64,000 bases of DNA from Candidatus Thorarchaeota archaeon (GCA_021498125.1 JAIZWL010000001.1:1104099-1168098); one strand, 5' to 3'; positions 820 through 64,000 are shown, counted from the stretch's first letter. Program-made: numbers and translations. The notes: generated by a model from the sequence alone, not told the origin.

Positions 820-1804
820 GATTGGTGCACATCCGAGCAGAGAGATCGATATCCGTGACCTGAAGGTCCGCTTTGGAAAGTTCTGGGCACTCAAGGGAGT
901 CTCGTTCTATGCCAATAAACGAGAATTTCTTGGTATCATTGGAGCCTCTGGTGCAGGTAAGACGACAGCTCTGCGAGTTCTCACCGGGCAGATCCGGCCC
1001 ACCTCCGGTCAGGCGTTTGTCGGCGGCCACGATGTCACCAAGAACCGCAAGCTCATCAGTCTACTTGTTGGATACGTGCCGCAGATCGAGCATCTGAGCC
1101 TCTATTATGATTTCAGTGCATTACAGAATGCACAGTTCTTTGGGCGCTGTTTTGGCATGCGCCCGCGGGAGATTGAGGAACGGGCCAGAAACATACTCAC
1201 GATTCTCGGTTTTGATGAGGACCTCATGACAAAACGAGTATCCCGTCTCTCTGGTGGTGAGCGGAAGCGAGTGTCCATCTCTCTTGGTCTCATTCACGAT
1301 CCTGTTCTTCTCTTGCTTGATGAACCCACGACGGGTCTTGATGCGCATCTCCGCCACGAGACCCTCAATTATCTAAAGGAATTGAATTTCGAACTTGGTA
1401 CTACAATGGTCATTATCAGTCACGACCTTGAGATCGTAGACTATTGTTCTCGTGTTGTCCTTCTTGAACATGGACTGGTTTCGCAATTCGGAACCCCCCA
1501 AGACCTCATCTCATCTCTTCCGGGCCATGGTGAGAGCCTGCGTCTGGTGCTTCCGACTTTTAATCCCACTGTGGAAGAGCGTATCCATCAGATTCCTGGG
1601 GTAAAATACGTGGCGACGGCCGGACGAAATACGGTCAAACTTTTCTTGGATAATCCGAAGGAGAAGATGCTTCCGGTAATTCGGCACTTGAATAGTATCA
1701 AAATGCCATTTGAAGAGCTGTCCTTAGTTGAAGCGGACTTTTTTGATTACTTCCAAGTTAAACCTTGGAAAGAAGATTCACAATCTGGAGTGGAATTGAC
1801 ATGA
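812..1804 (+). CDS. ABC-2-type transporter ATP-binding protein
   Basis: Walker A GASGAGKTT, signature LSGGERKRV, Walker B LLLLDEPTTGLD and H-loop ISHD are present. A roughly 100-aa C-terminal extension is typical of DrrA/GldA-type ABC-2 ATPases. The ORF opens at TTG 785. GTG 809/812 lie 4-7 nt after GGGAGGG (799-805), so the start is taken there. Confidence 0.9.
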   Translation: MSEIGAHPSREIDIRDLKVRFGKFWALKGVSFYANKREFLGIIGASGAGKTTALRVLTGQIRPTSGQAFVGGHDVTKNRKLISLLVGYVPQIEHLSLYYDFSALQNAQFFGRCFGMRPREIEERARNILTILGFDEDLMTKRVSRLSGGERKRVSISLGLIHDPVLLLLDEPTTGLDAHLRHETLNYLKELNFELGTTMVIISHDLEIVDYCSRVVLLEHGLVSQFGTPQDLISSLPGHGESLRLVLPTFNPTVEERIHQIPGVKYVATAGRNTVKLFLDNPKEKMLPVIRHLNSIKMPFEELSLVEADFFDYFQVKPWKEDSQSGVELT

Positions 1805-7800: not shown

Positions 7801-8535
7801 TATGATGAGGTCATCACTCATGGTACCAATCCTCAACTCCCAGACACCGACTCCGACAGACTGACTGACTACTTTGAGATTATGACCTCCCTGACTGACC
7901 CCTTGAATAATGATACCGATGGTGATGGTCTCTCCGATGGAGTTGAATACCTGACATACCATACAGATCCCCTCAAAGGGGATACTGATGGTGATACGCT
8001 CTCAGATTACTATGAGATCAGACATGGTCTCAATCCGTTGTCGGTCGATACGGATGGGGACTCGATTCCTGATAATGTGGACTTTGATCCGCATATTCAT
8101 GTGGGATACTATCTTGGCGGCGCGATCTTTGGGATTGTTGCACTTGTAGTAGTTGTGAAGACTCTCCGCAAGCGTGTGACCGAAAAGACTTACGTGACTG
8201 AGGCCGAGCCTGCCAGCGAGGGTCTGGCACCAGGGATGGATATTGCTGTAGAATACAAGATTCATGGCGGCAAGGTCATCTTCGGGGTCGTTGTACGTAA
8301 TGGCTCTACCGAGACCATGCAGAATGTCCATGTCGTTCTTGGAATCCCCGATCTCACGGATGCTATCAAGAGCGAGCTGATGGGGACGATCGAACCTGGC
8401 TCGTTGTCCGTCACAGAGGTGGAATTTGAGTTGGAACCCGGTGCTAAAGGTGAACTTGTGGGAATGGTGGAGTATGATACGCTAGAGGGTGAACATAGAG
8501 TGGTAAACCTGCGTCCAGTTGAGATCATAGCGTAG
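1801..8535 (+). CDS. Giant surface protein: signal anchor, 8 FG-GAP/VCBS-like propeller repeats, about 70 thrombospondin type-3 (DxDxDGxxDxxE) Ca-binding repeats, TM helix, cytoplasmic Ig-like tail
   Basis: ATG 1801 overlaps the ATPase stop (ATGA) and is followed at once by a hydrophobic anchor (MKPYHIFLAILTISVIIIVNS). FG-GAP-like units such as 'ASGDLDGTGDLEVIAGCDDSLVYAYG' span about nt 1980-2990. Units of the form 'TDPxxxDSDxDGLxDxxE' run from about 2990 to 8090. A TM helix (YLGGAIFGIVALVVVVKTL) lies at about 8107-8165, followed by a roughly 120-aa beta-rich tail. The ORF track extends to ATG 1765. Confidence 0.9.
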   Translation: MKPYHIFLAILTISVIIIVNSPMGGPAALGITPIGRPSALAGLSPYETALVWSNTTGSQVVDLATGNFDGDSNTEVAIILQNGSLVLFDERGNRNGTLSLGAAPNALSVVNIDGTGSMELVIGTSKGLLVVGADLSVLMNVTLPNEVWSVASGDLDGTGDLEVIAGCDDSLVYAYGLNGTQVWNYTSNAAVRRIMVADADADGVDEVLGASQFRQLFLLDTNGSAIFSQSYTFSISAIVFADLVGDTQLEVVTGDSNGTVAARYNNGTLFDTVYTSDAVTALVSGQLMAGGSPEIIVGASDGSLRIYNSTLVQQWNKTLGSQIDVIALADIGGLSDPQLLAGEGGTLHLYNASGTLVSNTDLVGFSSTLTTGDLDFNGLDEFVMGTNTGVVRAYGRDYDKDGLADARETLIVGTLWNDADTDNDQLNDGDEVLNYNTDPLSPDSDSDGLTDFQEVITYGTDPNDVDSDNDGLTDYQEIYLGTNPNRSDSDNDGLTDYEENNVTLTDPLRADSDDDGTNDAQDDNDGDGLTNIQEVRITKTDPNDADSDSDGTSDYYDDQDGDNLANWKELSIGTDPLDPDSDDDGLSDGDEVKIWKTSPLQTDTDGDQLTDYEEVHTVHSDPTVSDTDDDGLSDYDEYVTYGTSPINADTDNDSLSDGAEINTYHTNATNPDTDNDTISDGAEVHTWKTDPNSNDTDLDTLLDAEEIFIYHTNATLTDTDGDGLDDGAEIKQWHTNATSTDTDMDGIFDKDEVDRYPVFNATNAHTFNATVNDYDWDYDSDNLTNGQEIYLTLTDPTKADTNGNGKTDDLEDSDLDGLTNYQELYVTHTEPRNPDTDGDKVKDGDEVNILHTSPLDTDSDDDSLSDYDEDFDGDTLSNGVELYVTKTDPNDAYSHGTSQPRDDKYDNDADGLPNWFEVDRTNTDPLYNDTDDDGVLDGLEDPDNDNMTNIEEFEAGTLPLDPDSDNDGLSDWEETTLTHTNPLVQDTDDDGVRDDQDDQDNDGLTNLQEVRTYHSNATLWDTDGDMIRDGLEVDVGLNVTNSDTDGDGLYDGYNDLNHNGHWDQGEPGEDLDTDGVVDSGETDPSKADTDGDGLKDGAELTAGTDALDADTDGDGLKDGEEVNEYSCNPLLNDTDGDGLDDYTEVKITETDPTTNMTHAGVLDYNYDSDGDGLTNGQEIDVYKTSPGDMDSDDDGLTDYDEVKVYSSDPNKNDTDSDGLTDYEEVQYGSNVTTQDTDGDGLDDYVEVKILGTNATLYSTNANGTCDYDLDNDGDGLSNGLEIYGYGSNATDPDSDHDGLDDYTEVKLVGSSPTDKDTDNDGLSDYDEYTIYHTSPTRSDTDADGLSDDYEIYTSHTSPNKWDTDGDQLSDADEVNTYHSDPNSPDTDNDGIPDKTEIDLGTDLNSNDTDGDGLSDYAEWKTYGTDPTKADEDNDGLNDKEEIEHGTDPTNPDSDFDSLNDGDEVNIYHTSPTDEDTDHDNIADNDEVWNSHTDPNSADSDGDGITDDKDDEDADGITNFLEIYLYETNCTLFDTDSDYLGDGYEIFTSHTDPRSADTDDDGLGDWEEIFRYHSNPNNRDSDGDGLEDAEEALTYHTLLNNTDTDGDTLSDYDEIKVFETDPLQYDTDGDTLSDGAELNVYNTDPLEKDTDSDLLQDNQEILLGTNPRSSDTDNDGLTDYQENNLTYTDPLLYSTQGNDVSDADWDMDNDTLTNLQEISQTKTNPRLNDTDGDGVIDGADDEDRDLLTNYQECVLTKTNPRNKDTDGDGTSDYNDDEDDDGLSNGNEVWIYHSDPLAKDTDADGLDDYDEVTTYNTDILDPDTDNDLLSDGDEVNKYGSSPLLNDTDGDLLSDYEEVMFTDTDPTTNMTHAGVLDSEWDTDNDGLTNIAELRVYGTDPGDPDSDNDDLIDGAEITAGSDPLQPDTDGDSLLDGVEVNIYHTSPLLNDTDGDGLSDSDEVLTYGTSPLKVDTDGDWLSDAEEILIYHTDPLNPDDDGDGVTDYDEVITHGTNPQLPDTDSDRLTDYFEIMTSLTDPLNNDTDGDGLSDGVEYLTYHTDPLKGDTDGDTLSDYYEIRHGLNPLSVDTDGDSIPDNVDFDPHIHVGYYLGGAIFGIVALVVVVKTLRKRVTEKTYVTEAEPASEGLAPGMDIAVEYKIHGGKVIFGVVVRNGSTETMQNVHVVLGIPDLTDAIKSELMGTIEPGSLSVTEVEFELEPGAKGELVGMVEYDTLEGEHRVVNLRPVEIIA

Positions 8536-8608: not shown

Positions 8609-11600
8609 GTCTCAACACGACTACGTTCTTCTGAAACTTTGGTCTGGGTCTTGGATAATTTAGAGAACTATTACGTTTCAACACGACTACGTTCTTCTGA
8701 AACCGGAGTTAGAAAGCACTTTCTCGATGATATCACCGAAGTTTCAACACGACTACGTTCTTCTGAAACTTTATCGGACTCGAGTCCGGCGACTATATTT
8801 TGACCTGGTTTCAACACGACTACGTTCTTCTGAAACGTCAACTGTTTCTAACATTAGACGCGCATTCACGAAGAGTTTCAACACGACTACGTTCTTCTGA
8901 AACTGCTGGCGTTGCTGTTGTCGTGATACTGCTGCTTATGGTTTCAACACGACTACGTTCTTCTGAAACACCTGCCACCCAGTCAAGCCCATAACGTGCT
9001 AACTGTGGTTTCAACACGACTACGTTCTTCTGAAACTTCAGTGACGATGAAGTAGAGCTAAGCATAGAGAAAGCGTTTCAACACGACTACGTTCTTCTGA
9101 AACTTTTTTGAAGCATCAAATCTTATCCTCCAGTCGAGTTTCAACACGACTACGTTCTTCTGAAACTCTCAAGGTCAATCATCATAAAGCGAGTGTATTC
9201 ATGTTTCAACACGACTACGTTCTTCTGAAACATTTTCATGTAAGGCGGATCATAAGTAGCGACTGGTTCGTTTCAACACGACTACGTTCTTCTGAAACTA
9301 GCTTCTCGTACTGATTTTCAAACTCGGTTCTGGTGTTTCAACACGACTACGTTCTTCTGAAACGTTATTGCAGCCGTAGATGGTAGAGTTAATACTTATA
9401 AGTTTCAACACGACTACGTTCTTCTGAAACAGACGTACCCATGAAATTTCAAGTGCGCCACCAGTTGGTTTCAACACGACTACGTTCTTCTGAAACCTTT
9501 CCGAGTGGGTAAAGTACATGACGCCCCTTCAAGGTTTCAACACGACTACGTTCTTCTGAAACGGGAAATACTGCTTGTCCACTGGGCGGACATAGATCCG
9601 GTTTCAACACGACTACGTTCTTCTGAAACTCATAGATTCTTTCCTCTTCGAAAGTTTCACTCCATGGTTTCAACACGACTACGTTCTTCTGAAACGCGGT
9701 ACCTGTAGCTTGGAATCCGACAGCAGTTTTTGAGTTTCAACACGACTACGTTCTTCTGAAACTCTGTTTGCCACGTGGGTTGACATTTCACTGTTGTTTA
9801 GTTTCAACACGACTACGTTCTTCTGAAACGTTAGCGTGGATGGGCTACGTAATCCGAGAGTGCTGTTTCAACACGACTACGTTCTTCTGAAACGCACTAG
9901 TGAAGGACCTATAGGTCCTTCTTCAGGAGAGTTTCAACACGACTACGTTCTTCTGAAACTCGGCTATCATGTCATAGGTGGTCGAGGAATAGGCGGTTTC
10001 AACACGACTACGTTCTTCTGAAACGGACCCAACAATATCTGGTACATCTCTGAGCATAGGAGGTTTCAACACGACTACGTTCTTCTGAAACATGCCTGTC
10101 AGATTGAAGAGAGTTTCCCCACCATCCGGTTTCAACACGACTACGTTCTTCTGAAACCCTTTTGCATTAGATATAGATGGCGAATTTGAGCAAGTTTCAA
10201 CACGACTACGTTCTTCTGAAACGCAGATGAAGAAGTCTGATCCGCGTTTAGGCTGGAAGGGGTTTCAACACGACTACGTTCTTCTGAAACTATCGCGGGG
10301 CGGCAGAGAATCGGGAATGACCGGACCGAGTTTCAACACGACTACGTTCTTCTGAAACAAGCCGATGTTGAGGAGATAGTGGCAGAGTTCAGTGGGTTTC
10401 AACACGACTACGTTCTTCTGAAACTGACAGATTATGGGATAGGTGAAAAGAATGACTGATCGTTTCAACACGACTACGTTCTTCTGAAACACGCTCTATG
10501 AGCAGGTCCTCCTCGTAGCGCAGACCGTGTTTCAACACGACTACGTTCTTCTGAAACGTTCCACAGGGGCATGACATATGCCTCTGGTGTGGATGTTTCA
10601 ACACGACTACGTTCTTCTGAAACCACATGATTCTGATATCTTCTACGATGAAGTATATGATGGTTTCAACACGACTACGTTCTTCTGAAACGCGATTGCC
10701 ATTCAGTACGGTGATGATGCTTTCAAGTTGTTTCAACACGACTACGTTCTTCTGAAACGAACTGTGGGACTGCAACATTGGTAAGAGTTGCGGTAAGTTT
10801 CAACACGACTACGTTCTTCTGAAACTCGATGTTGAAGATGTGATATAAATATACCAAAAGCCGTTTCAACACGACTACGTTCTTCTGAAACATCTTGTCG
10901 AGAGTCGGCAGGATAAGAAGAGATTGATGTTTCAACACGACTACGTTCTTCTGAAACATATTCGAACATCCACAGATGCGTGGGTGTCGTTTGTGGTTTC
11001 AACACGACTACGTTCTTCTGAAACCGTCTGATCTTGATGTAGTCTTCTCTGATCTCTGGCAAGTTTCAACACGACTACGTTCTTCTGAAACTAGAACAAT
11101 CCATCCAAGCCAAAGACTTGCTAGTTTCAACACGACTACGTTCTTCTGAAACCAGTACGGGTCGATACTTCAGATATTTTGACAGTCTTCAGTTTCAACA
11201 CGACTACGTTCTTCTGAAACAAACGATAAGATCTCTGTATGAAGTTTCACGACTAGTTTATATGATAGTTTCAACACGACTACGTTCTTCTGAAACAATG
11301 TACGAGGCTTTGTACCAATCACGCAGCCAGTTAGTTTCAACACGACTACGTTCTTCTGAAACGCTTTTGAAACTAGCAAATTTCATAGGCATTACCTTCA
11401 GTTTCAACACGACTACGTTCTTCTGAAACCTATCATTGGGGGAAAGTTCTCATGTTCCCTGTTTCAACACGACTACGTTCTTCTGAAACGGATCTCATTG
11501 ATGGAAAGATCCCTTCGAACTACTAGTTTCAACACGACTACGTTCTTCTGAAACGATAGAGCAACAGCGCGCTGAGATGGAACATAATATCGTTTCAACA

Positions 11601-13182
11601 CGACTACGTTCTTCTGAAACGTTTCTTTGTACTTTGGAGGACGGGCGCCCCGTGTCGTTTCAACACGACTACGTTCTTCTGAAACGTAGCTAGGAAATCA
11701 GAGCGCACATAGTCGTAGACGCGTTTCAACACGACTACGTTCTTCTGAAACCCTATACGTTATTTTATTCTCCCGGGAGAAGGAGATTGTTTCAACACGA
11801 CTACGTTCTTCTGAAACGTCATCGGGATTGCGACCTATTTCTTGTGGCCCGGCGGTTTCAACACGACTACGTTCTTCTGAAACTTTGATACTTGCAGTGA
11901 CTCGGAACTTGCTACCTATTGGTTTCAACACGACTACGTTCTTCTGAAACGCAAGCCAGTCTATGCATATAGGCGTTCAGGTGATGGGTGTTTCAACACG
12001 ACTACGTTCTTCTGAAACCGCTGTTGACATGATAGTTTCAGCCTCTCTATGATATCCTTGTTTCAACACGACTACGTTCTTCTGAAACTGAACACAAAAC
12101 TATCAAAAACCGAAATCCTGAAACTGTTTCAACACGACTACGTTCTTCTGAAACTGATTCTGTGATGGTTATGAGACCGTCATCTTCATCATGTTTCAAC
12201 ACGACTACGTTCTTCTGAAACGATCTTGACCGTATTGCACCTCTTGAAATATGAATATGGTTTCAACACGACTACGTTCTTCTGAAACTTCTTCACTGAT
12301 TGGATTTCATTTGCAGTTAGTGATAGTTTCAACACGACTACGTTCTTCTGAAACTCCGCCGATCATCTGCACCAGACCCGAAAACAGACGCGTTTCAACA
12401 CGACTACGTTCTTCTGAAACATGAGGTGTTACAAATGACTGATATTGCACGATTCAGTTTCAACACGACTACGTTCTTCTGAAACTCTCGATCTGTTTTG
12501 AACCACAGATCCGAGATGCGGTAGTTTCAACACGACTACGTTCTTCTGAAACCGGAGAACGTCCTCTTGCTTGGAGAGGCAGGAATAGGGTTTCAACACG
12601 ACTACGTTCTTCTGAAACAGGAAATCATCTTGTCGAGGTCGTTGATGACACATCTTGTTTCAACACGACTACGTTCTTCTGAAACATTCTTAAAGGCGTC
12701 GAGAAGATAAGGGTACCCTAGGGTGATGTGTTTCAACACGACTACGTTCTTCTGAAACGAGCCCTTTTTGATTGAATCTGCACGAGACTATGCGCGAGAG
12801 GTTTCAACACGACTACGTTCTTCTGAAACCGACTCGGACTACGCTTGGTACTACTGGTCATTCTTCAACACGCCTTTTTTTTGTTTCAACACGACTACGT
12901 TCTTCTGAAACGCACACGACTACGTGAACCTTACGACTTGTGCGGTGGACATGTTTCAACACGACTACGTTCTTCTGAAACTTTGGGATTTGGGCTGTGT
13001 TGGCATGATCAGATACTGAGTTTCAACACGACTACGTTCTTCTGAAACGAGTATTGTAGGAACCGATCTCAGTCATGAAACACGAGTTTCAACACGACTA
13101 CGTTCTTCTGAAACCTTGCGAATACTTGGTCCGATGGGGATTATCTCTGATTGGTTTCAACACGACTACGTTCTTCTGAAAC
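8609..13182 (-). CRISPR. CRISPR array with 69 repeats of 29 nt (plus-strand GTTTCAACACGACTACGTTCTTCTGAAAC) and 68 spacers
   Basis: I located every repeat by hand. Most spacers are 36-39 nt, with outliers of 31, 32, 34, 41, 41, 42, 44, 47 and 53 nt. The repeat at 8609 is degenerate (GTCTC...), which suggests the trailer end. A 310-nt non-coding AT-rich region follows 13182. The reverse-complement repeat ends in GTTGAAAC, close to the canonical ATTGAAAC 5'-handle source. Minus-strand transcription is therefore inferred, not proven. Confidence 0.97.
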
Positions 13183-14888: not shown

Positions 14889-17800
14889 CTAACTCCGTGG
14901 CTCAGTCATGTCTTTGATCAGGATCGCATTATCGATTTTAGTTCCGTGGAGGAGCCACCAGCTGCGTTTAGCCTTCTGACCTGATCTGAGTCTAAACTTG
15001 TCGCTCAGCATGAGGAAATGCCCCGCTTCTCCAGTGTGATTGACTATGATATTGCCTCTGGTCTTGCATGTGGAAGCGACACAGAGGACTTCTCCATTTG
15101 GACGTTCGAATGCAAACCATCCGGAACTCGCATCGGGGATCAAATGGACCCCATTAGGTGTGGGTTCGTAGATCGTTCTCTGGCCCAGTCTGACAAAGTG
15201 AAGCCGATCACTCTCATTGACTCCACTTGCGGGTACGCCAACTAATCCCGCCTCGCAGATTCTCCATCGTTTACCTCGATTCTCAATGGTCATGATCACA
15301 TTTACTAGTGGTGTTCCCTTTAGTAACAGGTAGTCGTAGGATAGATGGACTCCCTGCACATTTTCGGCATGCCTGAGCGTGGTCATGATTCTGTAGCCCA
15401 CAAGTGGTCCACGCTCGATTTCTTCCACACTCCATGTTTCTCGTCGTAGGCTGGTCTGCCAGTCCCAAATATGATGGCCTGCAACAAAGGGTGTCATTCC
15501 ACTGTATAGGATATCAAGCCATGCAAATGGTCTCAGCTCAGGGAACGTGTCATAGAACACACTAGGGCCATTCTCAGGGCCATATGCCACTAGGCCTCCC
15601 GCCTGTTCGGGTGAGACCGAGAGTCGGTATCCTCCACTCCTTATCGTATGAAGTGATAGTTCTTGATACTCTTCCCGTGATCGTTGGATCTTGTCGGTCG
15701 AATCATAGCAGACGGTTCTAAGAGGGAACCGTGCTATCCGGTTGGGAAACTCGATGACAATTTCGCCATCCTCTCGAAGCCATGGTCCATCCTCAACGGT
15801 GGTCTCTATCTCCTTTTCAAACGGCTGATCAATGGATGCTTCAAACTTGAATGTCAGTTCTCTCTCTCCGTTGAAAAGGATTCCCGCCGGTGGTCTGATG
15901 TGTGCAGTCGCACTTATCGGATCCTTTTGAATCACACTCACTTGTAACTTCAGCCAATCCTTTACCGCCCTGTCAACCGCAGTCAGCGCCGGGGACATGT
16001 TCTGAATCCAACCAGTTGAAGCTGCAAAGGTCACCTCAAGTGACGAATGTGGTTTGATGGGGTCTTCATTTGCGATGGTCTTGCCATTGAGCTTTGCCCA
16101 CCTATCGCGAATGTCCCGCCATGTGCCTGTTGTGAAATAGAGTCTGATGACTCTCTGTTCTATAGACTCTCCAGGTTGAAGATCACGGAACTTGTATTCC
16201 GTCTGAGGCGGTCTGACGCTACGTTGTGGCTTGATCCGAACAATCCCTTCATGTTCCCAGATCGCACCTAAGAGGTAACCTGCCTCCTCATCAGTGGCTA
16301 CAAACCAGTCCTCGTGATAATATTGTGGCTTGTCCGGCAGTTGCCCGCCCTTCCCCCAATAAGAGTCACTGAGGCTGTAGATCTTCCCATTGAGTGGAAC
16401 ATACAACTTCGTGAGTTGTAGGCTTGCCCAGTTCTCCACATTTAGCCCGAGATTTTCAATAGGCTCCACACCAAGATTTTCTAATCTGACAATGAACTCA
16501 AGCTCGCCACTTCCAGCATGAGCCCGGTAGACGAACTGAACCCGAAGGCCCGGCCTGTCCTTTGAGTCCCCCTCGAAGATGATCTCGGCTGTGTCTCCAT
16601 GATTGTTGTATATGGGGTGATATTCTCTATTTAGCCATTCACCCCCTTCTGGGAATGGATATCCGATCTGAGGCGTCAACATCCACCCCGTTGCAATACG
16701 ATCGACCGTCTTGTACTCAATGGTCTCTACATATGGGAGTGGCCCCTTTCCAAACTCAAGTCTATACTGTTCTGTTTCAAGTACTGCCCGAGTCGAACAT
16801 GACTCGTAGACTACAGCCCCCTGTGTTCCAAGAACGACAACTGATATTGCCGTATCTTTGATTCTTACAGAGTCTTCTTTTTGGATGTAAATTGCGGTGT
16901 CGATGGAGATCACAGAGTTCGTGTCTTCTGTTGAGGTCTCCACCTCCAATTGTTTCATGATCGTGTCCTTTGGCCCGATCTCAAACTCAAACAAATGCCA
17001 GCTCAAGTTATGGCCTCCATTCCCGGCGAGTACGACTCTTCCCTTGATCTGTTCAGGGGTATTGTTTTCGAGTTGTATCTCGATCTCAGCTCTCTCACCC
17101 GGGCTAACGGAAGGATAATCCGGTCCTGTTGAAAATGTGACCGCATCTTTCGGAATAATGCCACTAAACATGTCTACAGACTTGTCTTCGATTCGGAGCG
17201 TCCACTGTGCCCATGTCTTGACTTTCACATATGGTTCAGACACTGAATGTGGCTTGGCTGAGGGCAGAATCTCATACCCTCCAATGATCTCTGTCTCCTC
17301 TCCAATACCGATATTGACCTGAGTTGGTCCTTCGATCAGTGCTCTCAGTTTTTCACTTGGCCTCACGACTACAGAAGCTTGGATATTCTCCTCGGTCTTG
17401 TTCTTAATGTGTAATCGTACTGGTGTAGTGCCTACGGCAATGTATCCGATCTGGGATTCTGGCATGACCGTGGCCTCGATCGTCTTGCCATCGATCGTGA
17501 GAACAAACCCGCAGATTCCTTTTGCATATCTGTCAATGGTGACATCCAATCTGTCCCCGTTATTTCCCTCAAAGTGATACTCATAGACTCCGATTCCGTT
17601 TCGTGAATATTCATCTGGGACCTGATTGATCGTTGGTCTTATACTCTCGTACCAATAATGCCGTTGGAAAAATTCTTCGAAGAGTGGTGTAGTGATGATA
17701 CAAGGAATATACGACTCCATCAGGACACGTGTATCAGGCACCCAGTTGAATCCGATCCTCTTGTAGAGAGGCATGGCCTTCAGATTGCCCCCCCATGTGT

Positions 17801-18191
17801 GAAGATCGATTCTGCGTTTGCCATGCTGTGCAGCAGTCTCCGTTGCTGCAATGAGCATCGCCTTTCCGTACCCTTTCCCCTGATAGTCTGGTCTGACGCC
17901 AAGTAGCCCCACATATGCTCCTTCTCGGTCTAGTTCCGCGTGACACAAGTTGCAGTGTCCTACTATCTTGTCACCATCAATGGCTACAATGGTGCGAATA
18001 TCGTCCGATTTCTCTTTTCGTTCTAGGACGCTCTGGGCTGTTACTTGTATACCTCCCGTGAACCCGCCTGGCCATGAGTCTGAGTCATCAAATGAGTTGA
18101 AACAATCAGCCAATTTAGCCGCATCGTCTATAGTCATTACAAAATCGCGAATTTTATCTCTAGTGTATTTCTCGGCCATTTTGATCACCAT
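14889..18191 (-). CDS. 1,100-aa protein: N-terminal GNAT acetyltransferase domain fused to a roughly 930-aa uncharacterised beta-rich region
   Basis: A GNAT motif A is present ('VGLLGVRPDYQGKGYGKAMLIAATETAAQHGKRRIDLHTW...PLYKRIGF'). The remainder has no motif I recognise apart from Ig/CARDB-like segments. An alternative start, ATG 18179, is preceded by GGTGA. Confidence 0.8.
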   Translation of the reverse strand: MVIKMAEKYTRDKIRDFVMTIDDAAKLADCFNSFDDSDSWPGGFTGGIQVTAQSVLERKEKSDDIRTIVAIDGDKIVGHCNLCHAELDREGAYVGLLGVRPDYQGKGYGKAMLIAATETAAQHGKRRIDLHTWGGNLKAMPLYKRIGFNWVPDTRVLMESYIPCIITTPLFEEFFQRHYWYESIRPTINQVPDEYSRNGIGVYEYHFEGNNGDRLDVTIDRYAKGICGFVLTIDGKTIEATVMPESQIGYIAVGTTPVRLHIKNKTEENIQASVVVRPSEKLRALIEGPTQVNIGIGEETEIIGGYEILPSAKPHSVSEPYVKVKTWAQWTLRIEDKSVDMFSGIIPKDAVTFSTGPDYPSVSPGERAEIEIQLENNTPEQIKGRVVLAGNGGHNLSWHLFEFEIGPKDTIMKQLEVETSTEDTNSVISIDTAIYIQKEDSVRIKDTAISVVVLGTQGAVVYESCSTRAVLETEQYRLEFGKGPLPYVETIEYKTVDRIATGWMLTPQIGYPFPEGGEWLNREYHPIYNNHGDTAEIIFEGDSKDRPGLRVQFVYRAHAGSGELEFIVRLENLGVEPIENLGLNVENWASLQLTKLYVPLNGKIYSLSDSYWGKGGQLPDKPQYYHEDWFVATDEEAGYLLGAIWEHEGIVRIKPQRSVRPPQTEYKFRDLQPGESIEQRVIRLYFTTGTWRDIRDRWAKLNGKTIANEDPIKPHSSLEVTFAASTGWIQNMSPALTAVDRAVKDWLKLQVSVIQKDPISATAHIRPPAGILFNGERELTFKFEASIDQPFEKEIETTVEDGPWLREDGEIVIEFPNRIARFPLRTVCYDSTDKIQRSREEYQELSLHTIRSGGYRLSVSPEQAGGLVAYGPENGPSVFYDTFPELRPFAWLDILYSGMTPFVAGHHIWDWQTSLRRETWSVEEIERGPLVGYRIMTTLRHAENVQGVHLSYDYLLLKGTPLVNVIMTIENRGKRWRICEAGLVGVPASGVNESDRLHFVRLGQRTIYEPTPNGVHLIPDASSGWFAFERPNGEVLCVASTCKTRGNIIVNHTGEAGHFLMLSDKFRLRSGQKAKRSWWLLHGTKIDNAILIKDMTEPRS

Positions 18192-29280: not shown

Positions 29281-31584
29281 TTGGTACAACCACGCGTGTT
29301 GTTAGAAATTGAGGATGATACGAATACGAGCGCAATTGCCGTAGGTGATGTCACGTCATCCGGACGCCCAGAACTTCTTACCGGAGGTCGGGATGGGGTT
29401 CTGAAATTGTATGATGCGAACCAGAGCGAGATCCATCTCTTAGCACAGGCCGATCTTGGTGGTAGCATTCTTGCGGTTCGGATTGCTGATGCCAATAACG
29501 ATGGTCAAATGGAGATAATCGTTGCACGGAGTCTCTCTCCCGGCGAGAGTCCGGGATCTGGAGAGACACTGCAAGTCTATCGATACTCCCCCTCGGGTAC
29601 CTTCGAACTGTTAGGAGCGTATCCTATTGACAGATTTGTGACTACGCTCACGATCACCGACGTGACCGGCGATAATAAGAACGAGATTCTTGCTGGTGGC
29701 AGTGATTCGACGCTCCGTGTCTTGCAGATGGATCCTGACAACAATCTTACCGAGTTTATCAATCATCAGCTACGAGATATGCCTCTGACAATCGGGACCT
29801 GTGATGTTGTTGGTGACGAACATGAAGAGATCGTCATTGGAAACCGTGACAAGACGCTTCATGTGTTGAAGGTTGTTGATTCTTCAATACAAGAGATCGA
29901 TGTGATCGAGCTGCCCAGTCCAGTCATCTCAATTGCTGCCGGTGACCTTCTTGGTGACCGAAAGATGGAGTTGGGTGTAGTCACACATGATGGCTCGATC
30001 CGTGTCTATAGAAATGAAGAGAATAAATTAGAACTCTTCTCCAAACTTGAAAATGCAAATGCTCTCTCGATCCGGATTGCTGAGTTGAATGCGGATCATA
30101 TGGACGAGATCGTTATTGCCACTTCTGATTACAAGATCGACTATTACAATCTGTATATGGCTGAATTGAAAAAGATCGCAACTGTTGAAATTGGTTCAAA
30201 GATCCTCTCGCTTGCGGTTGGAGATGCAGGCGGTGATGACCGACTAGAAGTGCTTGTGGGCATTTCAAATGGTCCTCTCAAGATTGTCGAGGGACTCTAC
30301 CATCTCATTCCACGTTTTCAAGTCAAGCCCAAAGCCGAGTCTGGAACAGGCCTACTTGGAACACTTACCGTACTAAATGTGACCGATCAACCAGTCGCCG
30401 GAGTCACTGGGAAGCTCTACTGGTTCCCGAAAGAGATGATGGAAGTTTCACCTCAGCAGATTCGATTGGACATTGGCCCTCACGAATCGAAGACTATTGA
30501 GATTGATATTCTGCCTCGTGAAGAGGGAACCATTGTCATTCGTCCAATTGTTCTGATGTGGACCGATGAATCGGGAGGTGTCCGACAAGTGACCACTCCT
30601 GAGACCGCGGTCCTTGCTGAGGCTGGTACCGTGACTGCTGCACCAGCTGAAGCACCAGCCGTCACATTGGACGGAGTTGAAGAGTCATCAGCTAGCGATG
30701 AGGCATCCCCTCTCTTCTCTTCTGTCGGTGGAACTGGCTTCAAACCACTTACCGAGGCGGATCGTCAAGAGATTGAGGCACAGGCCTCAGGTACAACAGA
30801 AGATGCAGTACGACAGGCCGAGCAGCTCTTGGACCAGCTCTTTGGCGATGCGAGTACTGATGCACAGGCTGCCCTTGATGATGTGAAACGGATGATCGAG
30901 GGTGAACCCGCCTCTGCTGAGACCGCAACTGCTACAGAAGCTGAGGTCACAGAGGCACCGCCTCCAGTCTCTAATGAGAGCGCACTTGTCGCGGAGATCC
31001 GAAATCGGCCACCCAAGCCTCCTCCACCCAAGGCCGCCCCCGATGCGTATAGTTTCTTGTTTAAGGTCATGATCATTGGTGAGGGTGCAGTTGGTAAGAC
31101 TACCCTCGTCAATCGTTATGTGACAGGTTCGTTCGAACGCGATTACAAGACCACTATTGGTTCTCAGTTTGCCGTCAAGCTGACTCATATCTTCCCACCC
31201 GAGTCAGAGTATGCTGTTGGTATCAAGATACAGGCCTGGGACGTGGCAGGACAGGCGCGATTTGCAGCAGTACGGAAGATGTACTACAGTGGTGCCGCTG
31301 GTGTGATTTTGGTCTTTGATGTCACTCGTCGTCGTTCGTTCACCGAACTGGAAAAATGGGTCAAAGAGGCTGACGAATCAGTTGGCTCGAGAGTGCCAAT
31401 GGTTGTTGTCGGTAACAAGATCGACCTGCCTGATAGAATGGTCAGCGCAGAAGAGGCCAAGAAATGGGCTGAGGATCAAGGGTTTGTGTATATGGAGAGC
31501 AGTGCCAAGACTGGTGAGGGTGTAGCCGACATGTTTACAGTCCTTGCCGAGTTAATGTGGCGCGAGACCAATAACAGCAAATGA
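29281..31584 (+). CDS. Fusion protein: 7 FG-GAP-like propeller repeats, an Ig/CARDB-like domain, an acidic Ala/Pro-rich linker and a C-terminal Rab-like small GTPase
   Basis: Seven units resemble 'AVGDVTSSGRPELLTGGRDGVLKLYD'. In the GTPase, G1 is GEGAVGKT (31078-31101), switch I is YKTTIGSQF, G3 is WDVAGQARF, G4 is NKIDL and G5 is SAKTG. Rab-family-like YYSGAAG and LVFDVT are present. There is no C-terminal Cys. The ORF-track start is TTG 29281, and the true start is uncertain (GTG 29296 is an alternative). Confidence 0.85.
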   Translation: MVQPRVLLEIEDDTNTSAIAVGDVTSSGRPELLTGGRDGVLKLYDANQSEIHLLAQADLGGSILAVRIADANNDGQMEIIVARSLSPGESPGSGETLQVYRYSPSGTFELLGAYPIDRFVTTLTITDVTGDNKNEILAGGSDSTLRVLQMDPDNNLTEFINHQLRDMPLTIGTCDVVGDEHEEIVIGNRDKTLHVLKVVDSSIQEIDVIELPSPVISIAAGDLLGDRKMELGVVTHDGSIRVYRNEENKLELFSKLENANALSIRIAELNADHMDEIVIATSDYKIDYYNLYMAELKKIATVEIGSKILSLAVGDAGGDDRLEVLVGISNGPLKIVEGLYHLIPRFQVKPKAESGTGLLGTLTVLNVTDQPVAGVTGKLYWFPKEMMEVSPQQIRLDIGPHESKTIEIDILPREEGTIVIRPIVLMWTDESGGVRQVTTPETAVLAEAGTVTAAPAEAPAVTLDGVEESSASDEASPLFSSVGGTGFKPLTEADRQEIEAQASGTTEDAVRQAEQLLDQLFGDASTDAQAALDDVKRMIEGEPASAETATATEAEVTEAPPPVSNESALVAEIRNRPPKPPPPKAAPDAYSFLFKVMIIGEGAVGKTTLVNRYVTGSFERDYKTTIGSQFAVKLTHIFPPESEYAVGIKIQAWDVAGQARFAAVRKMYYSGAAGVILVFDVTRRRSFTELEKWVKEADESVGSRVPMVVVGNKIDLPDRMVSAEEAKKWAEDQGFVYMESSAKTGEGVADMFTVLAELMWRETNNSK

Positions 31585-49401: not shown

Positions 49402-52400
49402 CTATAAATCGCCAGGCTTGAGAAGTCTTGTCCGGGCTTGGAATATTGGTCCCGAGATTCCCATCACTATTTTTACGAAGTCTGGATCCTCGCTGACAAG
49501 CCCGATCACATCCCGGTCGTTCGCGGAGGCAGGGGCAAGCATGATCTCTTCGCTGTCCATGATACATGCATAGATGTCCTTCTCATTGCGAACTCTCACG
49601 CGCACATTACCTCGGCCGACTAATGGACCCGCTCGTTGTTCGAGTGGTCCTCCTTCCGTCACTACGAGTTCGACTCCCACGCTCGATTTGAGTTCAACAA
49701 GTAGTTCGGTGGGAATATCGTTCGGGTCGGGGATGATCATCGTGACCTTTGATTTGGCACGTTGGACCATGTCTTTCATGTGCGCGAGCACTGCACGGCG
49801 TGTGACGACCATCCATGTCTTTCTTGCACCCGGATAGTCTGACTTTTGTAAGGTGTCAAGTACCGTGGTCAGAATATTGGCTACCTGTGAGCCGCTATCT
49901 ACAGACGTTCCCGCAAAGGCCTCCTCTAATGTCTGTTCCGTGAGACCCAGCATTGGACTGCTCTCCGTCTCTGTGAGGAGTTTCTCCAGCGTAGTCTTGG
50001 CCTCGGCCACACTGCCCTCAAGTGCATTATATCCCTCAGTGATCATATCCACCAGAGCACTCTTGAGGGCGTCGAGAGAACTGGTCGTCTTGTCAAGGCT
50101 TGCGTCTACGAGCTCCACCGCCCGTGTCTTAAGTTTATCACCAGCGTCGGATCCGGTTCTCTTCAGTCGTTCTCCCAGCTCGTCCATGTTTGTGCGTGCC
50201 TCCTCGATTGTGGACTCGACCGCTGAACTTCTCTGTGATACGACTTTGTCTACTTCGCCCTCAGAGCGATTCACAATGGACTCTACGTGCGTTCGCATCT
50301 CTGTGGCCTTTTCGCCCAGATCCGTCTTGACCCCTTCAAGTGTAGTATTGATTCCTGATGTGAATGCAGTCTTTGCTTCTTCGAGAGCGGCTGCTACCGA
50401 GCTGAGGTCGTTATTGACAGTCTGTGATGTCGTCTCAAGAGCGCCACTTGTGGTGTTCTTTGTCTCGGCAAGTCGCTGTTGTGCTTCCTGATCGATCTCA
50501 CTTAGACGATCCATAATGGACGTCTTGGCAGATGTGCTCTCTTGGTGAAGCGAAGAGGTCCCATCCTCAATGGTGCCTGTGAGCGCTGTTGAGATGGACT
50601 CTACAGTCTGTTGGACCGAGTCATGTAGTTGTTGTGAGTCCTGCGAGACCTTCTGGAGGGCGGCCTCTGTGGCCTCCGCAGTCGTGCGTGTAAGATGATT
50701 GACTGTTGCGCTCGTCTTGGACTTTGTAGTAGTCACTGCTTCTGCGATATTGGTTGTGATGTTCTCGAGAATTGTTCTGGTTTCGGTGGCCGTCTGTTCC
50801 ATTGTCTGACGGCTTGCTGCAATGGTCTCCTCATGTCTGAGCTGCACGTTATTGACGGTCTGTTCCTTGACAGTTCTAATCTTATCTAACATTGCAGTTC
50901 TAGACTCAGCAGTCCTCCCAAGTAGTGTACTCACGGACTCGGCCTCACGAGATATCGCTGCATTAATGGAGGACTCAATCCGTCTTGACATATCATCATG
51001 TGCAGTCCTGTACGTGGTGAGTTGTTCCGAAAGTGCGTTCTCGATCTGTTGGAGCTGGTTCTCAACAGCCTGCATGATCTCAGAGACCGCAGACTCCGCC
51101 ATCGACTGTATTTGCTGTGTCGCCTGACTGGTGGCTGCTTGAATTCGTGACTGAAGATCCTCTGTCAGTGTTTTCAGTTCGTCTGTGGTCTGCGACGCAT
51201 AGGCGTTGACCTTTGACTTGAGGCTCTCTGATATGGTTGTGAGTTCACGAGAGAGTGTTGCTCTTGTATTATCAAGGAGTTCGGTGTTGGTGTTGAGCGA
51301 TTGTCTATTCAGTTCAGTTAATGAGTTGCCCGTCTGATGGAGCGAGTCTTCAAGGGCGCTCTTCAGTTCTTCAAGGCTGGCCTCTGTGGAGCTGATGAAC
51401 TCGTTGGTAGCCACCTCTGAACTTCCCACTAATGTGTTGCCAGCATCTTTGGCTATCGTGCTGAGAGATTCCGAGGTGCTGACAATGGTCTGGTCCTCAA
51501 CACGTAGGAACCCTTCGATCTGATCCGAGAGCGAGTTCTTCGCTGTGTCCACTGTAGTGGCAAGCTCGGCCATTGTTGTATCTAGATCGGTTCTAAATTC
51601 TTCAGTGAATCTTTCATGATCTTGGCTCATCTGTTGGACTATCTGTTCCAACTTTGATTTGTGATCCACGAGTAGACCATCGGTACTACTCTGAAGTTCC
51701 TCTAACTGGGATACTCCCTGATTCTTTACAGTGTCAAGGCCCTCGGCCATACGACTGGTGATGTTATCAATGATTGTACCCAACGTGTTCTTGGCATCTG
51801 TGACTGTGGACTCAATTCTCTTTGTTGCATCTTCCACTGTCGCTGTGGTAGAAGTCCCGGCCGTTCCGATGTATTGAGTGACATTTTCTTTTGCGGAGTG
51901 GATAGACGCTACAGCCCTACTGTATTGTGTTTCGGCAGTCTCCTGAACAGTCAATCCTTGAGCATCAATGCTTGATCCCGCTCTCTCCTCAAAGGTGTCC
52001 ACCACCGAGTGCAGGTCATTTGACGTATCCCCTGTGATGCTCTTTGCGGAAGATGCCCATGACTTCATGTCGGCTATCAGTGAGTTGGCAATGCTGGCGA
52101 TACTGTTCTTTGTATCTGCTATGACCGGATCGATCATGTGTGGCAGTTCGCTCTCCCATTCACCAAGGGTCGCTTCTGCTTGAGTTGCAAACACCCGCTT
52201 GTCCTCGGCTAATGTCCCTTTTGCGGAGGTGAGCGAATTCTCCACTTGTGAAACGCTCTCACCTTTCTTGGAGGCCATCCTCTCCGCCTGTGCTGTCAGA
52301 TCCCCTGAGGCCTTGCCTGCACTCTCTACCAGTGCATCACGTACTTTCTTTGAGGCCTCAGCGACCTGCGACTTCAGATCATCCCGGATCTTCCCAATTT

Positions 52401-52662
52401 GGGTTCCCAGATCTCTCAACTCAGCAGCGAGCCCCTCGAAGGGCGGAACTGCTTGGTAACGCGGAATTATCCCCGGTAACTCGATTGCGAGTTTCATGTC
52501 AACAAGGTTCTTCACTAGTTCCTCAGCCTTATCATAATCGACATCAAGTAATAGGCTCACATCGCCTGTTGTGATGTTGCCAGTTGCAAGCATGAGCGAG
52601 TATGTCTTCATTCCGTGCTCATCGAGTCCGGTAATTTTATCCACGGCATTCTGTTCTGTCAT
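49402..52662 (-). CDS. Giant TrmB-like protein: N-terminal wHTH, roughly 800-aa Ser/Thr/Glu/Ala-rich helical repeat region, C-terminal TrmB_C-like domain
   Basis: GAGGAG lies 4 nt upstream of ATG 52662 (the ORF opens at 52692). The wHTH is 'TYSLMLATGNITTGDVSLLLDVDYDKAEELVKNLVDMKLAIE'. The C-terminus is 'VTMIIPDPNDIPTELLVELKSSVGVELVVTEG...VRVRVRNEKDIYACIMDSEEIMLAP'. The middle is continuous amphipathic-helix-like low-complexity sequence. Confidence 0.75.
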   Translation of the reverse strand: MTEQNAVDKITGLDEHGMKTYSLMLATGNITTGDVSLLLDVDYDKAEELVKNLVDMKLAIELPGIIPRYQAVPPFEGLAAELRDLGTQIGKIRDDLKSQVAEASKKVRDALVESAGKASGDLTAQAERMASKKGESVSQVENSLTSAKGTLAEDKRVFATQAEATLGEWESELPHMIDPVIADTKNSIASIANSLIADMKSWASSAKSITGDTSNDLHSVVDTFEERAGSSIDAQGLTVQETAETQYSRAVASIHSAKENVTQYIGTAGTSTTATVEDATKRIESTVTDAKNTLGTIIDNITSRMAEGLDTVKNQGVSQLEELQSSTDGLLVDHKSKLEQIVQQMSQDHERFTEEFRTDLDTTMAELATTVDTAKNSLSDQIEGFLRVEDQTIVSTSESLSTIAKDAGNTLVGSSEVATNEFISSTEASLEELKSALEDSLHQTGNSLTELNRQSLNTNTELLDNTRATLSRELTTISESLKSKVNAYASQTTDELKTLTEDLQSRIQAATSQATQQIQSMAESAVSEIMQAVENQLQQIENALSEQLTTYRTAHDDMSRRIESSINAAISREAESVSTLLGRTAESRTAMLDKIRTVKEQTVNNVQLRHEETIAASRQTMEQTATETRTILENITTNIAEAVTTTKSKTSATVNHLTRTTAEATEAALQKVSQDSQQLHDSVQQTVESISTALTGTIEDGTSSLHQESTSAKTSIMDRLSEIDQEAQQRLAETKNTTSGALETTSQTVNNDLSSVAAALEEAKTAFTSGINTTLEGVKTDLGEKATEMRTHVESIVNRSEGEVDKVVSQRSSAVESTIEEARTNMDELGERLKRTGSDAGDKLKTRAVELVDASLDKTTSSLDALKSALVDMITEGYNALEGSVAEAKTTLEKLLTETESSPMLGLTEQTLEEAFAGTSVDSGSQVANILTTVLDTLQKSDYPGARKTWMVVTRRAVLAHMKDMVQRAKSKVTMIIPDPNDIPTELLVELKSSVGVELVVTEGGPLEQRAGPLVGRGNVRVRVRNEKDIYACIMDSEEIMLAPASANDRDVIGLVSEDPDFVKIVMGISGPIFQARTRLLKPGDL

Positions 52663-52828
52663 GTTTCTCCTCATCCCAAGAATTACGGTCAATCTTTTTT
52701 GAGCCCTGTTCCCAATATCTCTTGTGTATTTTTTCTTTACAGAGCCGCATTGAATACTCGTTTCTTATCTGCGAAAAGTTATATGTGGATTTGGAATGAC
52801 ACACTCAAACGCCTCAGTGGGGAAAATA

Positions 52829-57730: not shown

Positions 57731-57889
57731 GATTTTGACCCCGTGATTCACTTGTGTGTTCTTTTGATTTCTTACGGATGAGTTGGTTGCTGGATTTGGC
57801 TTTTTAATGGTACTGTTTGGTTTGTTCTGTTCTGGTTCGCCTTTACGTTTATAGGGGCGCTTAGTCATTGAAGTATTGTGAATTTAGTA

Positions 57890-60085: not shown

Positions 60086-60190
60086 CTACATGCTGCGAGA
60101 GCAATCTTACAGACATATGCCCTCTTCTTGCCCTGCATGTTTCGGCCAATCACATTATATGCTCTGTTTCATCGCATAGATCATTGGTTG

Positions 60191-62872: not shown

Positions 62873-63255
62873 TGTTTCCGAATCAAATAATCCCCTTACA
62901 ATCGAGATTTACTGGAACTATCTAGATGTTGTTGATGAACGAGTCACATCACCTATCTCCACAATGACATGAATTCAGGATTTGCGATTACTACTGACTT
63001 TTCTCTAATTTGTTAGTCCCACCATATGATTGCTTTAATGCTTTTGAGTTGTGGTTTCATCAGTTCCTGATTCTACTCTCTCAATCAATTTGTCCTCATC
63101 TGATGAAGTGTGGGCATTAGACGTAATGTACGTTCTCAGTAGTTATTTTATTAAACTTCCCACTATGTAATTCGGTATTTGCGGTTTGACCTAAAGTAAG
63201 TCATTGTAAGAAATGTTCATAACGCTCATCTTTTCTGCAAATAGTGGTCACTACA

Positions 63256-63795: not shown

Positions 63796-64000
63796 GTGAT
63801 GATCACATTCGCGCTCTCCGACGCAGGTGATAGCCGCACTTGTTCCTATGATTGAATCACTGATGGCCTTATGATATTCAATCTTGTTTCTTGCCTTTGG
63901 TTGATTGTACGAGTGTGCAAAATTAGCACAATGTTTTAATTCTTTCATATCGAATTATTGGTATTAATCAGGTGGGGACATACTAATGACTACTGTTACG

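Follow-up and report, generated by a model that had tools for sequence, protein, structure and literature searches.

Many GTPases related to Rab, Arf and Rag are encoded by Asgard archaea, and what they act on in cells without an endomembrane system is a wide question. It is raised in a particular form by an open reading frame (ORF) at positions 29281-31584 of a stretch of 64,000 nucleotides (nt) from a Candidatus Thorarchaeota archaeon (GCA_021498125.1 JAIZWL010000001.1:1104099-1168098), referred to here as the window, in which a seven-bladed propeller and a Rab-like small GTPase are joined in a single polypeptide of 767 amino acids (aa). A sequence-only reading of the window had proposed for this protein a cytoplasmic FG-GAP propeller, an immunoglobulin (Ig)-like sandwich, an acidic linker and a Rab-like GTPase lacking a prenylation Cys, and each of these four parts is confirmed by Pfam searches, AlphaFold2 (AF2) models and motif analysis. 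The gene is real and strongly conserved in Thorarchaeota. We consider below to which known proteins its parts are related and how they might work together.

The fusion gene and its G domain

The features of the ORF, whose four parts follow one another from the N to the C terminus, are listed with window coordinates and with the evidence for each; the local confidence of the AF2 models is given as the predicted local distance difference test (pLDDT).

29281-31584, + strand: complete, monocistronic ORF of 767 aa plus stop, with a TTG start placed according to the start position of homologues
29293-30291, + strand: seven-bladed FG-GAP_3-type beta-propeller, residues 5-337 (Pfam, AF2, Foldseek, invariant columns)
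30304-30621, + strand: Ig-like (E-set) beta-sandwich, residues 342-447 (AF2 strands with pLDDT 80-94; weak sequence matches)
30637-31047, + strand: acidic, Ala/Glu/Pro-rich, intrinsically disordered linker, residues 453-589 (composition, pLDDT, family identity)
30730-30741, + strand: conserved linker motif GTGF, residues 484-487 (family alignment)
30805-30846, + strand: conserved helical linker motif AVRQAEQLLDQLFG, residues 509-522, consensus SLKAAExLLDQLFG (family conservation)
30976-31032, + strand: conserved motif before the G domain, ESALVAEIRNRPPKPPPPK, residues 566-584, a short helix plus basic polyproline (alignment)
31048-31581, + strand: Rab-like small GTPase domain, residues 590-767 (Pfam Ras, PDB matches, family identity)
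31078-31101, + strand: G1/P-loop GEGAVGKT, residues 600-607 (invariant in the family)
31144-31161, + strand: switch I/G2 YKTTIG, residues 622-627, running into a RabF1-like IGSQF (motif search)
31240-31254, + strand: G3/switch II DVAGQ, residues 654-658, including Gln658 at the catalytic position (motif search, family conservation)
31414-31425, + strand: G4 NKID, residues 712-715 (motif search)
31501-31509, + strand: G5 SAK, residues 741-743 (motif search)

The TTG start is credible because in the family alignment the homologues start at the matching column, their first residue being M, L or V and the next ones xSP[KR][IV]L, and because a Shine-Dalgarno-like GAAGGA lies 7 nt upstream. The protein is already present in NCBI nr, and the sole match that an NCBIfam scan gave for it is the generic small_GTP domain. 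No signal peptide or transmembrane segment was found in the 767-aa protein (the maximum 19-residue Kyte-Doolittle mean is 1.35), in agreement with the earlier prediction that the propeller is cytoplasmic.

A search of 5.8 billion protein clusters rendered 168 matches, of which the best 120 (clusters at 90% identity) have lengths of 741-826 aa, are 62-95% identical to the window protein, share the same Pfam set and come almost exclusively from metagenome-assembled genomes (MAGs) labelled 'Candidatus Thorarchaeota', where they are named 'GTP-binding protein', 'small GTP-binding protein' or 'hypothetical protein'. Such sequences have been public under generic names since the first Thorarchaeota MAGs, AM326_07550 of SMTZ-45 being an example. 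When one genome per GTDB species was scanned with two peptide patterns, the gene was located in 70 species-level genomes, nearly all labelled Thorarchaeota and a few labelled Promethearchaeota, Hermodarchaeota or uncultured archaeon; these patterns would miss members as divergent as P0122 (see below), for which the profile search compensates. The gene is a single uninterrupted full-length ORF in 63 of the 70 loci, including two closed chromosomes (CP070658.1 and CP070761.1), and runs off the contig end in the remaining seven, with no split gene, stop or frameshift among the 70. Since one intact ORF is found in 63 genomes and the rest are cut by contig ends, the fusion, for which the sequence-only reading had raised the possibility of a chimera of two genes, is not an artefact of assembly.

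How far the fusion extends beyond these genomes was addressed by an exhaustive profile search, in which an alignment of the propeller and sandwich was compared with 1.84 billion representatives. The whole propeller-sandwich module is present in only about three clusters at 50% identity, and beyond them the scores drop from 452 bits, first to fragments and next to generic FG-GAP repeat proteins of giant size, with propeller-only matches. Outside Thorarchaeota this search gave the fusion in P0122 alone (GCA_053994715.1), a deep branch with 42% identity over the full length, the same architecture and a different synteny, and a further search with P0122 found no other relatives of its branch. The earlier suggestion to look for the same fusion in other Asgard MAGs thus leads to a family that is narrow, essentially of Thorarchaeota, and yet old enough to predate the P0122 split. 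Over the 121 sequences of the family, identity to the window protein is about 90% in the G domain and, per 20-residue block, ranges over 54-91% in the propeller, 46-85% in the sandwich and 19-42%, with indels, in the linker. The family is under strong purifying selection.

The five G motifs noticed by the sequence-only reading are all present at the residues listed above, including the switch II Gln, and are invariant across the family. Pfam Ras (PF00071) matches residues 595-758 with an E-value of 3e-47 and 160.6 bits, compared with 109.7 bits for Roc and 54.8 for Arf. The best PDB sequence match is the 'Thorarchaeota Rab' 7EZB (155.7 bits), followed by Rab14, Sec4, Rab25, Rab30, Rab21, Rab2, Rab5, Rab11, Rab35, Rab8 and Rab1, and the best 60 PDB matches are all Rabs, at 114-156 bits; in alignments of about 170 residues the domain is 44% identical to 7EZB and 41% identical to human Rab14. 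A series of reference GTPases, whose Rab scores agree with the PDB sequence search, scored 113.7 bits (Rab5A), 112.7 (Rab1A), 102.6 (Rab7A), 87.9 (Ran), 76.1 (HRas), 50.2 (RhoA), 34.6 (MglA) and 31.7 (Arf1). By this sequence comparison the G domain is of Rab type, with Rab far above Ran, Ran above Ras, Ras above Rho, and MglA and Arf far below. A placement with MglA, considered beforehand as the alternative, disagrees both with its score (34.6 bits versus 103-114 for Rabs) and with the absence of any MglA among the best 60 PDB matches.

The elements TIGSQF, KIQAWDVAGQARF, YYSGAAG and LVFDVT, to which the Rab-like character had first been ascribed, are likewise present and nearly invariant across the 121 members. 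The RabF1-F5 consensus, reportedly that of Pereira-Leal and Seabra in 2000, is said to read IGVDF, KLQIW, RFRSIT, YYRGA and LVYDIT; against this consensus the RabF-like motifs IGSQF, KIQAW, RFAAVR, YYSGA and LVFDVT are identical at 16 of 27 positions and have several conservative changes, with a weak match to RabF3 (two of six positions), and within the family all of them are near-invariant. A C-terminal hypervariable tail and a prenylatable Cys are absent, as had been stated for the latter: the only Cys of the whole protein is C174, the C-terminal end reads ...LMWRETNNSK, and just one of the 121 members has any Cys in its last 15 residues. In archaeal Rab-like proteins both features are missing as a rule (PMC4915359; PMC10933270). 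Pfam reports no COR domain, and nothing follows the G domain in the protein.

The same type of G domain is found in Thor-Rab (7EZB; Tran et al. 2024, PMC10933270) and in the Rab-like family of Lokiarchaeum, which also has neither the hypervariable tail nor the prenylation Cys (Surkont & Pereira-Leal 2016, PMC4915359). These GTPases stand alone, with a length of about 180 aa, whereas here the G domain makes up the C-terminal quarter of 767 aa. SMTZ1-45, the MAG from which Thor-Rab was taken, also has the propeller-Rab fusion on another contig (L038), so that the two are paralogues. Multidomain GTPases of Asgard archaea have been described in which longin or roadblock domains are fused to Rag- or Arf-like domains (Tran et al. 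2024, PMC10933270; Liu et al. 2020, 10.1101/2020.10.19.343400), and these likewise combine a small GTPase with a putative regulatory or scaffold domain, although the partners there are longin and roadblock and not a propeller-Ig module; the word 'propeller' does not occur in Tran et al. 2024 or in the Liu et al. 2020 preprint. A literature search, which left aside the supplementary tables of the asCOG paper, rendered no description of a propeller-Ig-Rab architecture, no work combining Asgard with FG-GAP and GTPase or Asgard with Rab-like, propeller and domain architecture, and none linking Asgard archaea with BBS2/7/9/ITFG2. The domain combination appears therefore to be undescribed, as had been claimed, and the databases offer only 'GTP-binding protein', whereas multidomain Asgard GTPases as such were already known.

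The propeller, the sandwich and the linker

Pfam FG-GAP_3 (PF13517 class) matches the N-terminal 340 residues in six stretches, with 72.5 bits against a cut-off of 26.9. An AF2 model of residues 1-451, built with a family alignment of 25 sequences (pLDDT 90.9; predicted template-modelling score, pTM, 0.85), contains 28 strands arranged in seven four-stranded blades at residues 6-336, the number of FG-GAP-like repeats that had been proposed, and the N-terminal strand 6-10 is read in this model as the velcro closure of blade 7. A D-x-x-x-D-x-x-x-E motif is highly conserved in the A-B loop of each blade, and the loop of blade 2, DANNDGQME, resembles in its sequence a canonical Ca-binding loop. 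A few invariant residues outside the repeat signature lie near blades 4-5 (DMPxxIGTCD, LPSPVIS and YRNEE) and may belong to one face of the propeller.

The sandwich joins the propeller directly, strand 333-336 being followed by strand 342-350 with no helix between (DSSP of the AF2 model). Its strands, at residues 342-447, agree with the Ig/CARDB-like fold that had been assigned to 30315-30615 (residues 346-445), and so do the sequence matches, weak as they are. Across 18 family members, ASH was matched weakly in 16 of the 18 (best E 1.7e-5), other recurrent weak matches being Transglut_C, BatD/DUF11, fn3_6 and NPCBM_assoc, and the GAE family was not matched in any of them. Against Pfam and PDB, both single-sequence and profile searches gave sub-threshold matches of E-set/ASH type only, and in the exhaustive profile search the sandwich is recognisable by sequence only within the propeller-Rab family.

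A Foldseek comparison of the AF2 model (residues 1-451) with the PDB placed BBSome subunits (BBS2, BBS9, BBS7 and BBS1) at all of ranks 1-10, with E-values of 7e-18 to 7e-13 and alignments of 473-614 columns that extend past the propeller. Integrin alpha headpieces follow from rank 11 down (about 1e-12), and after these ITFG2 of KICSTOR, for which rigid superposition is best (root-mean-square deviation about 4.2 A over about 350 columns, TM-score about 0.69 on the target). The family profile matched among PDB sequences ITFG2 (E 2e-6, spanning only blades 1-3, residues 5-151), BBS7 (0.004) and BBS2 (0.04) and no integrin, and a single-sequence PDB search with the N-terminal region gave nothing significant. 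In Pfam, Beta-prop_BBS7 (58.2 bits), BBS2_Mid (50.1) and Itfg2 (28.0) score over their gathering cut-offs. However, of ten unrelated FG-GAP_3 proteins (330-500 aa) taken as a control, seven reach 36-88 bits with BBS2_Mid, Beta-prop_BBS7 and Itfg2, as high as the window protein or higher, so that the Pfam signal belongs to the FG-GAP_3 class as a whole and was rejected as a sign of BBSome ancestry. We conclude that the propeller-sandwich module, as modelled, falls in the same structural class as the cytoplasmic adaptors BBS1/2/7/9 and ITFG2, this being a likeness at the level of the class and not a sign of BBSome ancestry.

The subunits BBS1/2/7/9 are built of a propeller, a helix and an Ig-like GAE domain, to which BBS2/7/9 add a platform and a coiled coil; in the BBS1 propeller, blades 1 and 7 are the site at which ARL6-GTP binds, and Ca2+ is bound by the propeller of BBS2 (PMC7018513). 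The BBSome structures (PDB 6VBU, 6VOA) share with the Thorarchaeota protein a cytoplasmic seven-bladed propeller, with its velcro strand at the N terminus and an Ig-like sandwich behind it, and by analogy a small GTPase that engages the propeller may be regarded as a shared functional logic. Unlike BBS1/2/7/9, however, the Thorarchaeota protein has no helix between propeller and sandwich, no platform or coiled coil and no GAE signal in its sequence, and the GTPase of the BBSome is Arf-like and acts in trans, whereas here it is Rab-like and fused in cis. ITFG2 (PDB 9V6E, 9O5A) has a cytoplasmic FG-GAP-type propeller like that of the Thorarchaeota module, and its pathway regulates small (Rag) GTPases, but an Ig domain and a fused GTPase are both missing from it. 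With integrin alpha, which has a signal peptide and a C-terminal transmembrane anchor not found here, the likeness is at the level of the fold only. The earlier remark that FG-GAP propellers are classically extracellular is hence incomplete: the cytoplasmic BBS1/2/7/9 and ITFG2 are the closest solved folds, and a cytoplasmic propeller of the FG-GAP class is not surprising in itself.

A further propeller-class protein of the window is the product of a giant ORF of 2256 aa (1765-8535, + strand) with Ca-binding repeats of the bacterial thrombospondin type-3 kind (TSP3_bac, 436 bits). Its N-terminal FG-GAP-class segment matches BBS2_Mid at 33 bits, another instance of BBS Pfam matches that are generic for the class.

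The linker has the composition (19.7% Ala, 12.4% Glu, 10.9% Pro; isoelectric point 4.05) and the ending (RPPKPPPPK) that had been described, but it is about 137 aa long rather than about 150, with length variation and indels across the family, and it is not plain low-complexity sequence, since it contains conserved motifs. A full-length AF2 model built with 40 sequences (pTM 0.57) retains the propeller and sandwich and leaves the linker disordered (pLDDT 27-43). In the motif at residues 509-522, A513, E514, L520 and F521 are invariant and L516, L517, D518 and G522 are kept in at least 90% of members, and a helix is predicted there with low confidence (507-521, full-length model). The motif at residues 566-584, with the consensus ESxLVxEIRxRxPKPPxPG, directly precedes a Rab1-like xDxYxFLFK entry into strand beta1; residues 561-580 have a moderate pLDDT of 64-67, unlike the rest of the linker, and this motif alone among those of the linker is kept in P0122. 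Between 30730 and 31032, GTGF, AExLLDQLFG and R-x-PKPPxPG thus stand amid otherwise variable, disordered acidic sequence. By analogy, the Phe-Gly motifs and the basic polyproline may be likened to the short linear motifs by which eukaryotic proteins attach to domains of the appendage or profilin/SH3 type.

Gene neighbourhood and the rest of the window

Upstream of the ORF lie genes for the substrate-binding protein and permease of an ATP-binding cassette (ABC) transporter (+ strand) and a divergent ATPase gene (- strand), separated from the ORF by about 160 nt. Downstream the ORF is followed by two convergent genes, read as the beta and alpha subunits of indolepyruvate:ferredoxin oxidoreductase (IorB-IorA), and then a gene for a DHH-family protein. 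The order of ABC transporter, IorB-IorA and DHH is kept in 53-67 of the 70 loci, with the flanking genes on the opposite strand, and reflects general synteny among Thorarchaeota genomes. No gene for a roadblock, longin, TRAPP, GTPase-activating or guanine-nucleotide-exchange-factor-like protein adjoins the ORF in the window or in the 70 loci. A role in anti-phage defence was also considered and rejected, PADLOC giving 0 families at E<=0.01. In the locus of P0122 (L071), a 319-aa protein with an Arf-family GTPase domain is encoded at 11794-12753 (- strand), two genes downstream of the fusion and past a DHH/DHHA1 gene, a neighbour not seen in the Thorarchaeota loci.

Several other features of the window deserve mention. 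In a large array of clustered regularly interspaced short palindromic repeats (CRISPR) at 8609-13182 (+ strand), the 29-nt repeat GTTTCAACACGACTACGTTCTTCTGAAAC is present in 69 copies, at a period of about 66 nt, where 0 chance matches are expected; the array is flanked by the 2256-aa TSP3-repeat protein and a TPR protein, with no Rfam family at threshold and no recognisable cas genes adjoining. A 1096-aa ORF at 49402-52692 (- strand) matches Apolipoprotein A1/A4/E amphipathic-helix repeats (105 bits versus a cut-off of 90) and DUF6674, which is unusual for an archaeon, and may encode a lipid- or membrane-coating protein. Within 57878-64000 the G+C fraction falls from about 0.48 to 0.38-0.40 beyond 60 kb, and an 893-aa ORF with no Pfam match (60191-62872, - strand) adjoins a 735-aa protein with an N6_N4_Mtase (DNA methylase) domain (57878-60085, + strand); this region could represent foreign or mobile DNA, or an island for restriction-modification. 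Finally, a 1100-aa ORF at 14889-18191 (- strand) has an N-terminal GNAT acetyltransferase domain (about residues 53-150) only, its other 950 or so residues being unannotated.

Possible mode of action and meaning of the fusion

On balance we lean towards a protein that works in the cytoplasm as a switch and scaffold in a single polypeptide, in which a Rab-like G domain is connected through a disordered linker to a rigid propeller-Ig platform and gates this platform by its nucleotide state. Any localisation must come from protein contacts, because the protein has no signal peptide, transmembrane segment or lipidation Cys. The G domain would cycle between GTP and GDP like other Rab-like proteins, and the Thorarchaeota Rab 7EZB, the closest solved G domain, binds nucleotide (PMC10933270). 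The propeller-sandwich module would be a platform for protein interactions, supplying in cis the localisation or partner binding for which eukaryotic Rabs depend on a prenyl tail and separate effectors. The nucleotide state would gate this platform, either in cis, if the GTP-form G domain or the helix and polyproline motifs of the linker dock on the propeller or sandwich of the same chain, so that autoinhibition and release would result, or in trans, if they dock on another copy and self-assembly becomes nucleotide-dependent, in parallel with ARL6-GTP on blades 1 and 7 of BBS1. ASH-type Ig domains are Rab-binding modules in OCRL1, and by analogy the sandwich is a candidate docking site. The coupling of a ligand-binding propeller to a membrane-traffic-type switch that the sequence-only reading had envisaged is likewise putative, and so are membrane association, a ligand and cross-talk between the domains.

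A number of observations weigh against such a switch and scaffold. GTP binding and hydrolysis, membrane association, a partner and communication between domains are all putative. The conserved propeller residues are mostly repeat-signature positions (121 sequences), which points to maintenance of the fold rather than to an identifiable binding site. Of the packing check that had been suggested, the AF2 models bear out a confidently folded propeller and sandwich but give, at full length, no confident interface of the propeller with the GTPase and no confident packing between domains at all, so that docking in cis is without computational support; moreover, the P-loop and switch I are poorly modelled there (pLDDT <50 at residues 586-627). 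We ascribe this weak modelling of the G domain to an alignment that is shallow and made up of highly similar sequences; the G-domain sequence itself can be aligned over its whole length with the crystal structure 7EZB. The genomic context, tried as a functional clue, was discarded, since the neighbours are metabolic, lie on opposite strands and include no GTPase regulator.

It can also be the case, though we consider it rather unlikely, that the protein is a sensor-coupled signalling GTPase comparable to the large Rabs or ROCO proteins, whose propeller senses Ca2+, through loops of the type D-x-N-x-D-G-x-x-E, or a ligand, whether soluble or a protein, and modulates the output of the GTPase. 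This output would reach downstream effectors, which might be cytoskeletal and be recruited through the basic polyproline, and the propeller would have no part as a trafficking scaffold. The large Rabs Rab44, Rab45/RASEF and Rab46/CRACR2A carry an N-terminal sensor region, with EF-hand Ca sensors, and the Rab domain in one chain, and LRRK2 combines a Roc GTPase with a C-terminal WD40 propeller; the Thorarchaeota fusion resembles them in having a long sensor or scaffold region at the N terminus, a segment that is flexible or rich in Pro, and a G domain of the Ras superfamily. The blade 2 loop, the related loops of every blade, the score of the Roc match and the conserved PKPPxPG directly before the G domain are in favour of a sensor of this kind. 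The loop motifs, however, are the generic signature of the FG-GAP_3 repeat, so that Ca binding is putative. ROCO proteins need a COR domain after Roc, which is not found here, the Ras match exceeds that of Roc, and in LRRK2 the propeller is C-terminal whereas in the fusion it is N-terminal. The large Rabs, for their part, retain the prenylation Cys and are equipped with EF-hands and coiled coils, where the fusion has a propeller and no such Cys. Any downstream partner of such a sensor would be hypothetical.

Improbable, in our estimate, is a genuine homologue of the propeller and GAE domains of BBS1/2/7/9, with the fused GTPase in the role of ARL6, that is, a pre-eukaryotic cargo adaptor recruited by its GTPase in cis. 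The ten top Foldseek ranks, the two BBS Pfam models that pass their cut-offs, the propeller-helix-GAE order of BBS1 with ARL6-GTP on its propeller and the Ca2+ bound by BBS2 would suit such a homologue. They are outweighed by the control propellers, which match the same models equally or better (up to 88 bits), by E-values of the profile against PDB that reach only 0.004 (BBS7) and 0.04 (BBS2), by a sandwich that in its sequence matches ASH/E-set and not GAE, by the lack of a heterodimerisation helix, platform or coiled-coil domain, by a GTPase that is Rab-like (103-114 bits) and not Arf-like (32 bits), and by the restriction of the family to Thorarchaeota and one deep branch. Similarly doubtful is a pre-eukaryotic, cis-tethered GTPase-adaptor of shared ancestry with BBS1/2/7/9 and ITFG2, whose GTP-bound Rab-like domain would bind the propeller or Ig module of adjacent copies or free an autoinhibited platform, so that a scaffold under nucleotide control would form on membranes or cargo. 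If true, BBSome-type subunits would gain their first relative among the archaea, and the protein would serve as a minimal model for the way in which coat-like adaptors came under the control of small GTPases.

Two further explanations hardly need to be entertained: an extracellular integrin-like adhesion propeller with a C-terminal domain that is not a cytoplasmic GTPase, suggested by the integrin headpieces (propeller plus thigh Ig) in Foldseek and by the many FG-GAP proteins that are secreted, is opposed by the lack of a signal peptide, a transmembrane segment and integrin matches in the profile-sequence search and by a fully conserved GTP-binding site that makes sense in the cytoplasm only, and a chimera of adjacent propeller and small GTPase genes formed through the low-complexity, length-variable linker, whether of assembly or of annotation, is contradicted by the same single ORF in closed and draft genomes, by the uniform length of the best 120 of the 168 matches and by the conserved motifs inside the linker.

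Returning to the switch and scaffold that we prefer, the fusion looks like a lineage-specific invention and not like a direct ancestor of a eukaryotic trafficking complex. Extensive lineage-specific domain shuffling has been reported for trafficking-type proteins of Asgard archaea (Liu et al. 2020 preprint, 10.1101/2020.10.19.343400), and the family is most likely the product of domain shuffling inside the Thorarchaeota lineage and not of a shared descent with a eukaryotic complex. For the question of what Rab-like GTPases act on in these cells, the protein is of value in that a selected 'partner' of the switch is written into the same polypeptide, and, being single-copy at its locus, strongly constrained and present across the whole class, it offers a tractable entry point. 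If the propeller-Ig module should be specifically related to BBS/ITFG2, the origin of this class of adaptors would move before eukaryogenesis; if not, the family would still be a clean case of Asgard domain shuffling exploring couplings of GTPase and scaffold that eukaryotes build from separate subunits.

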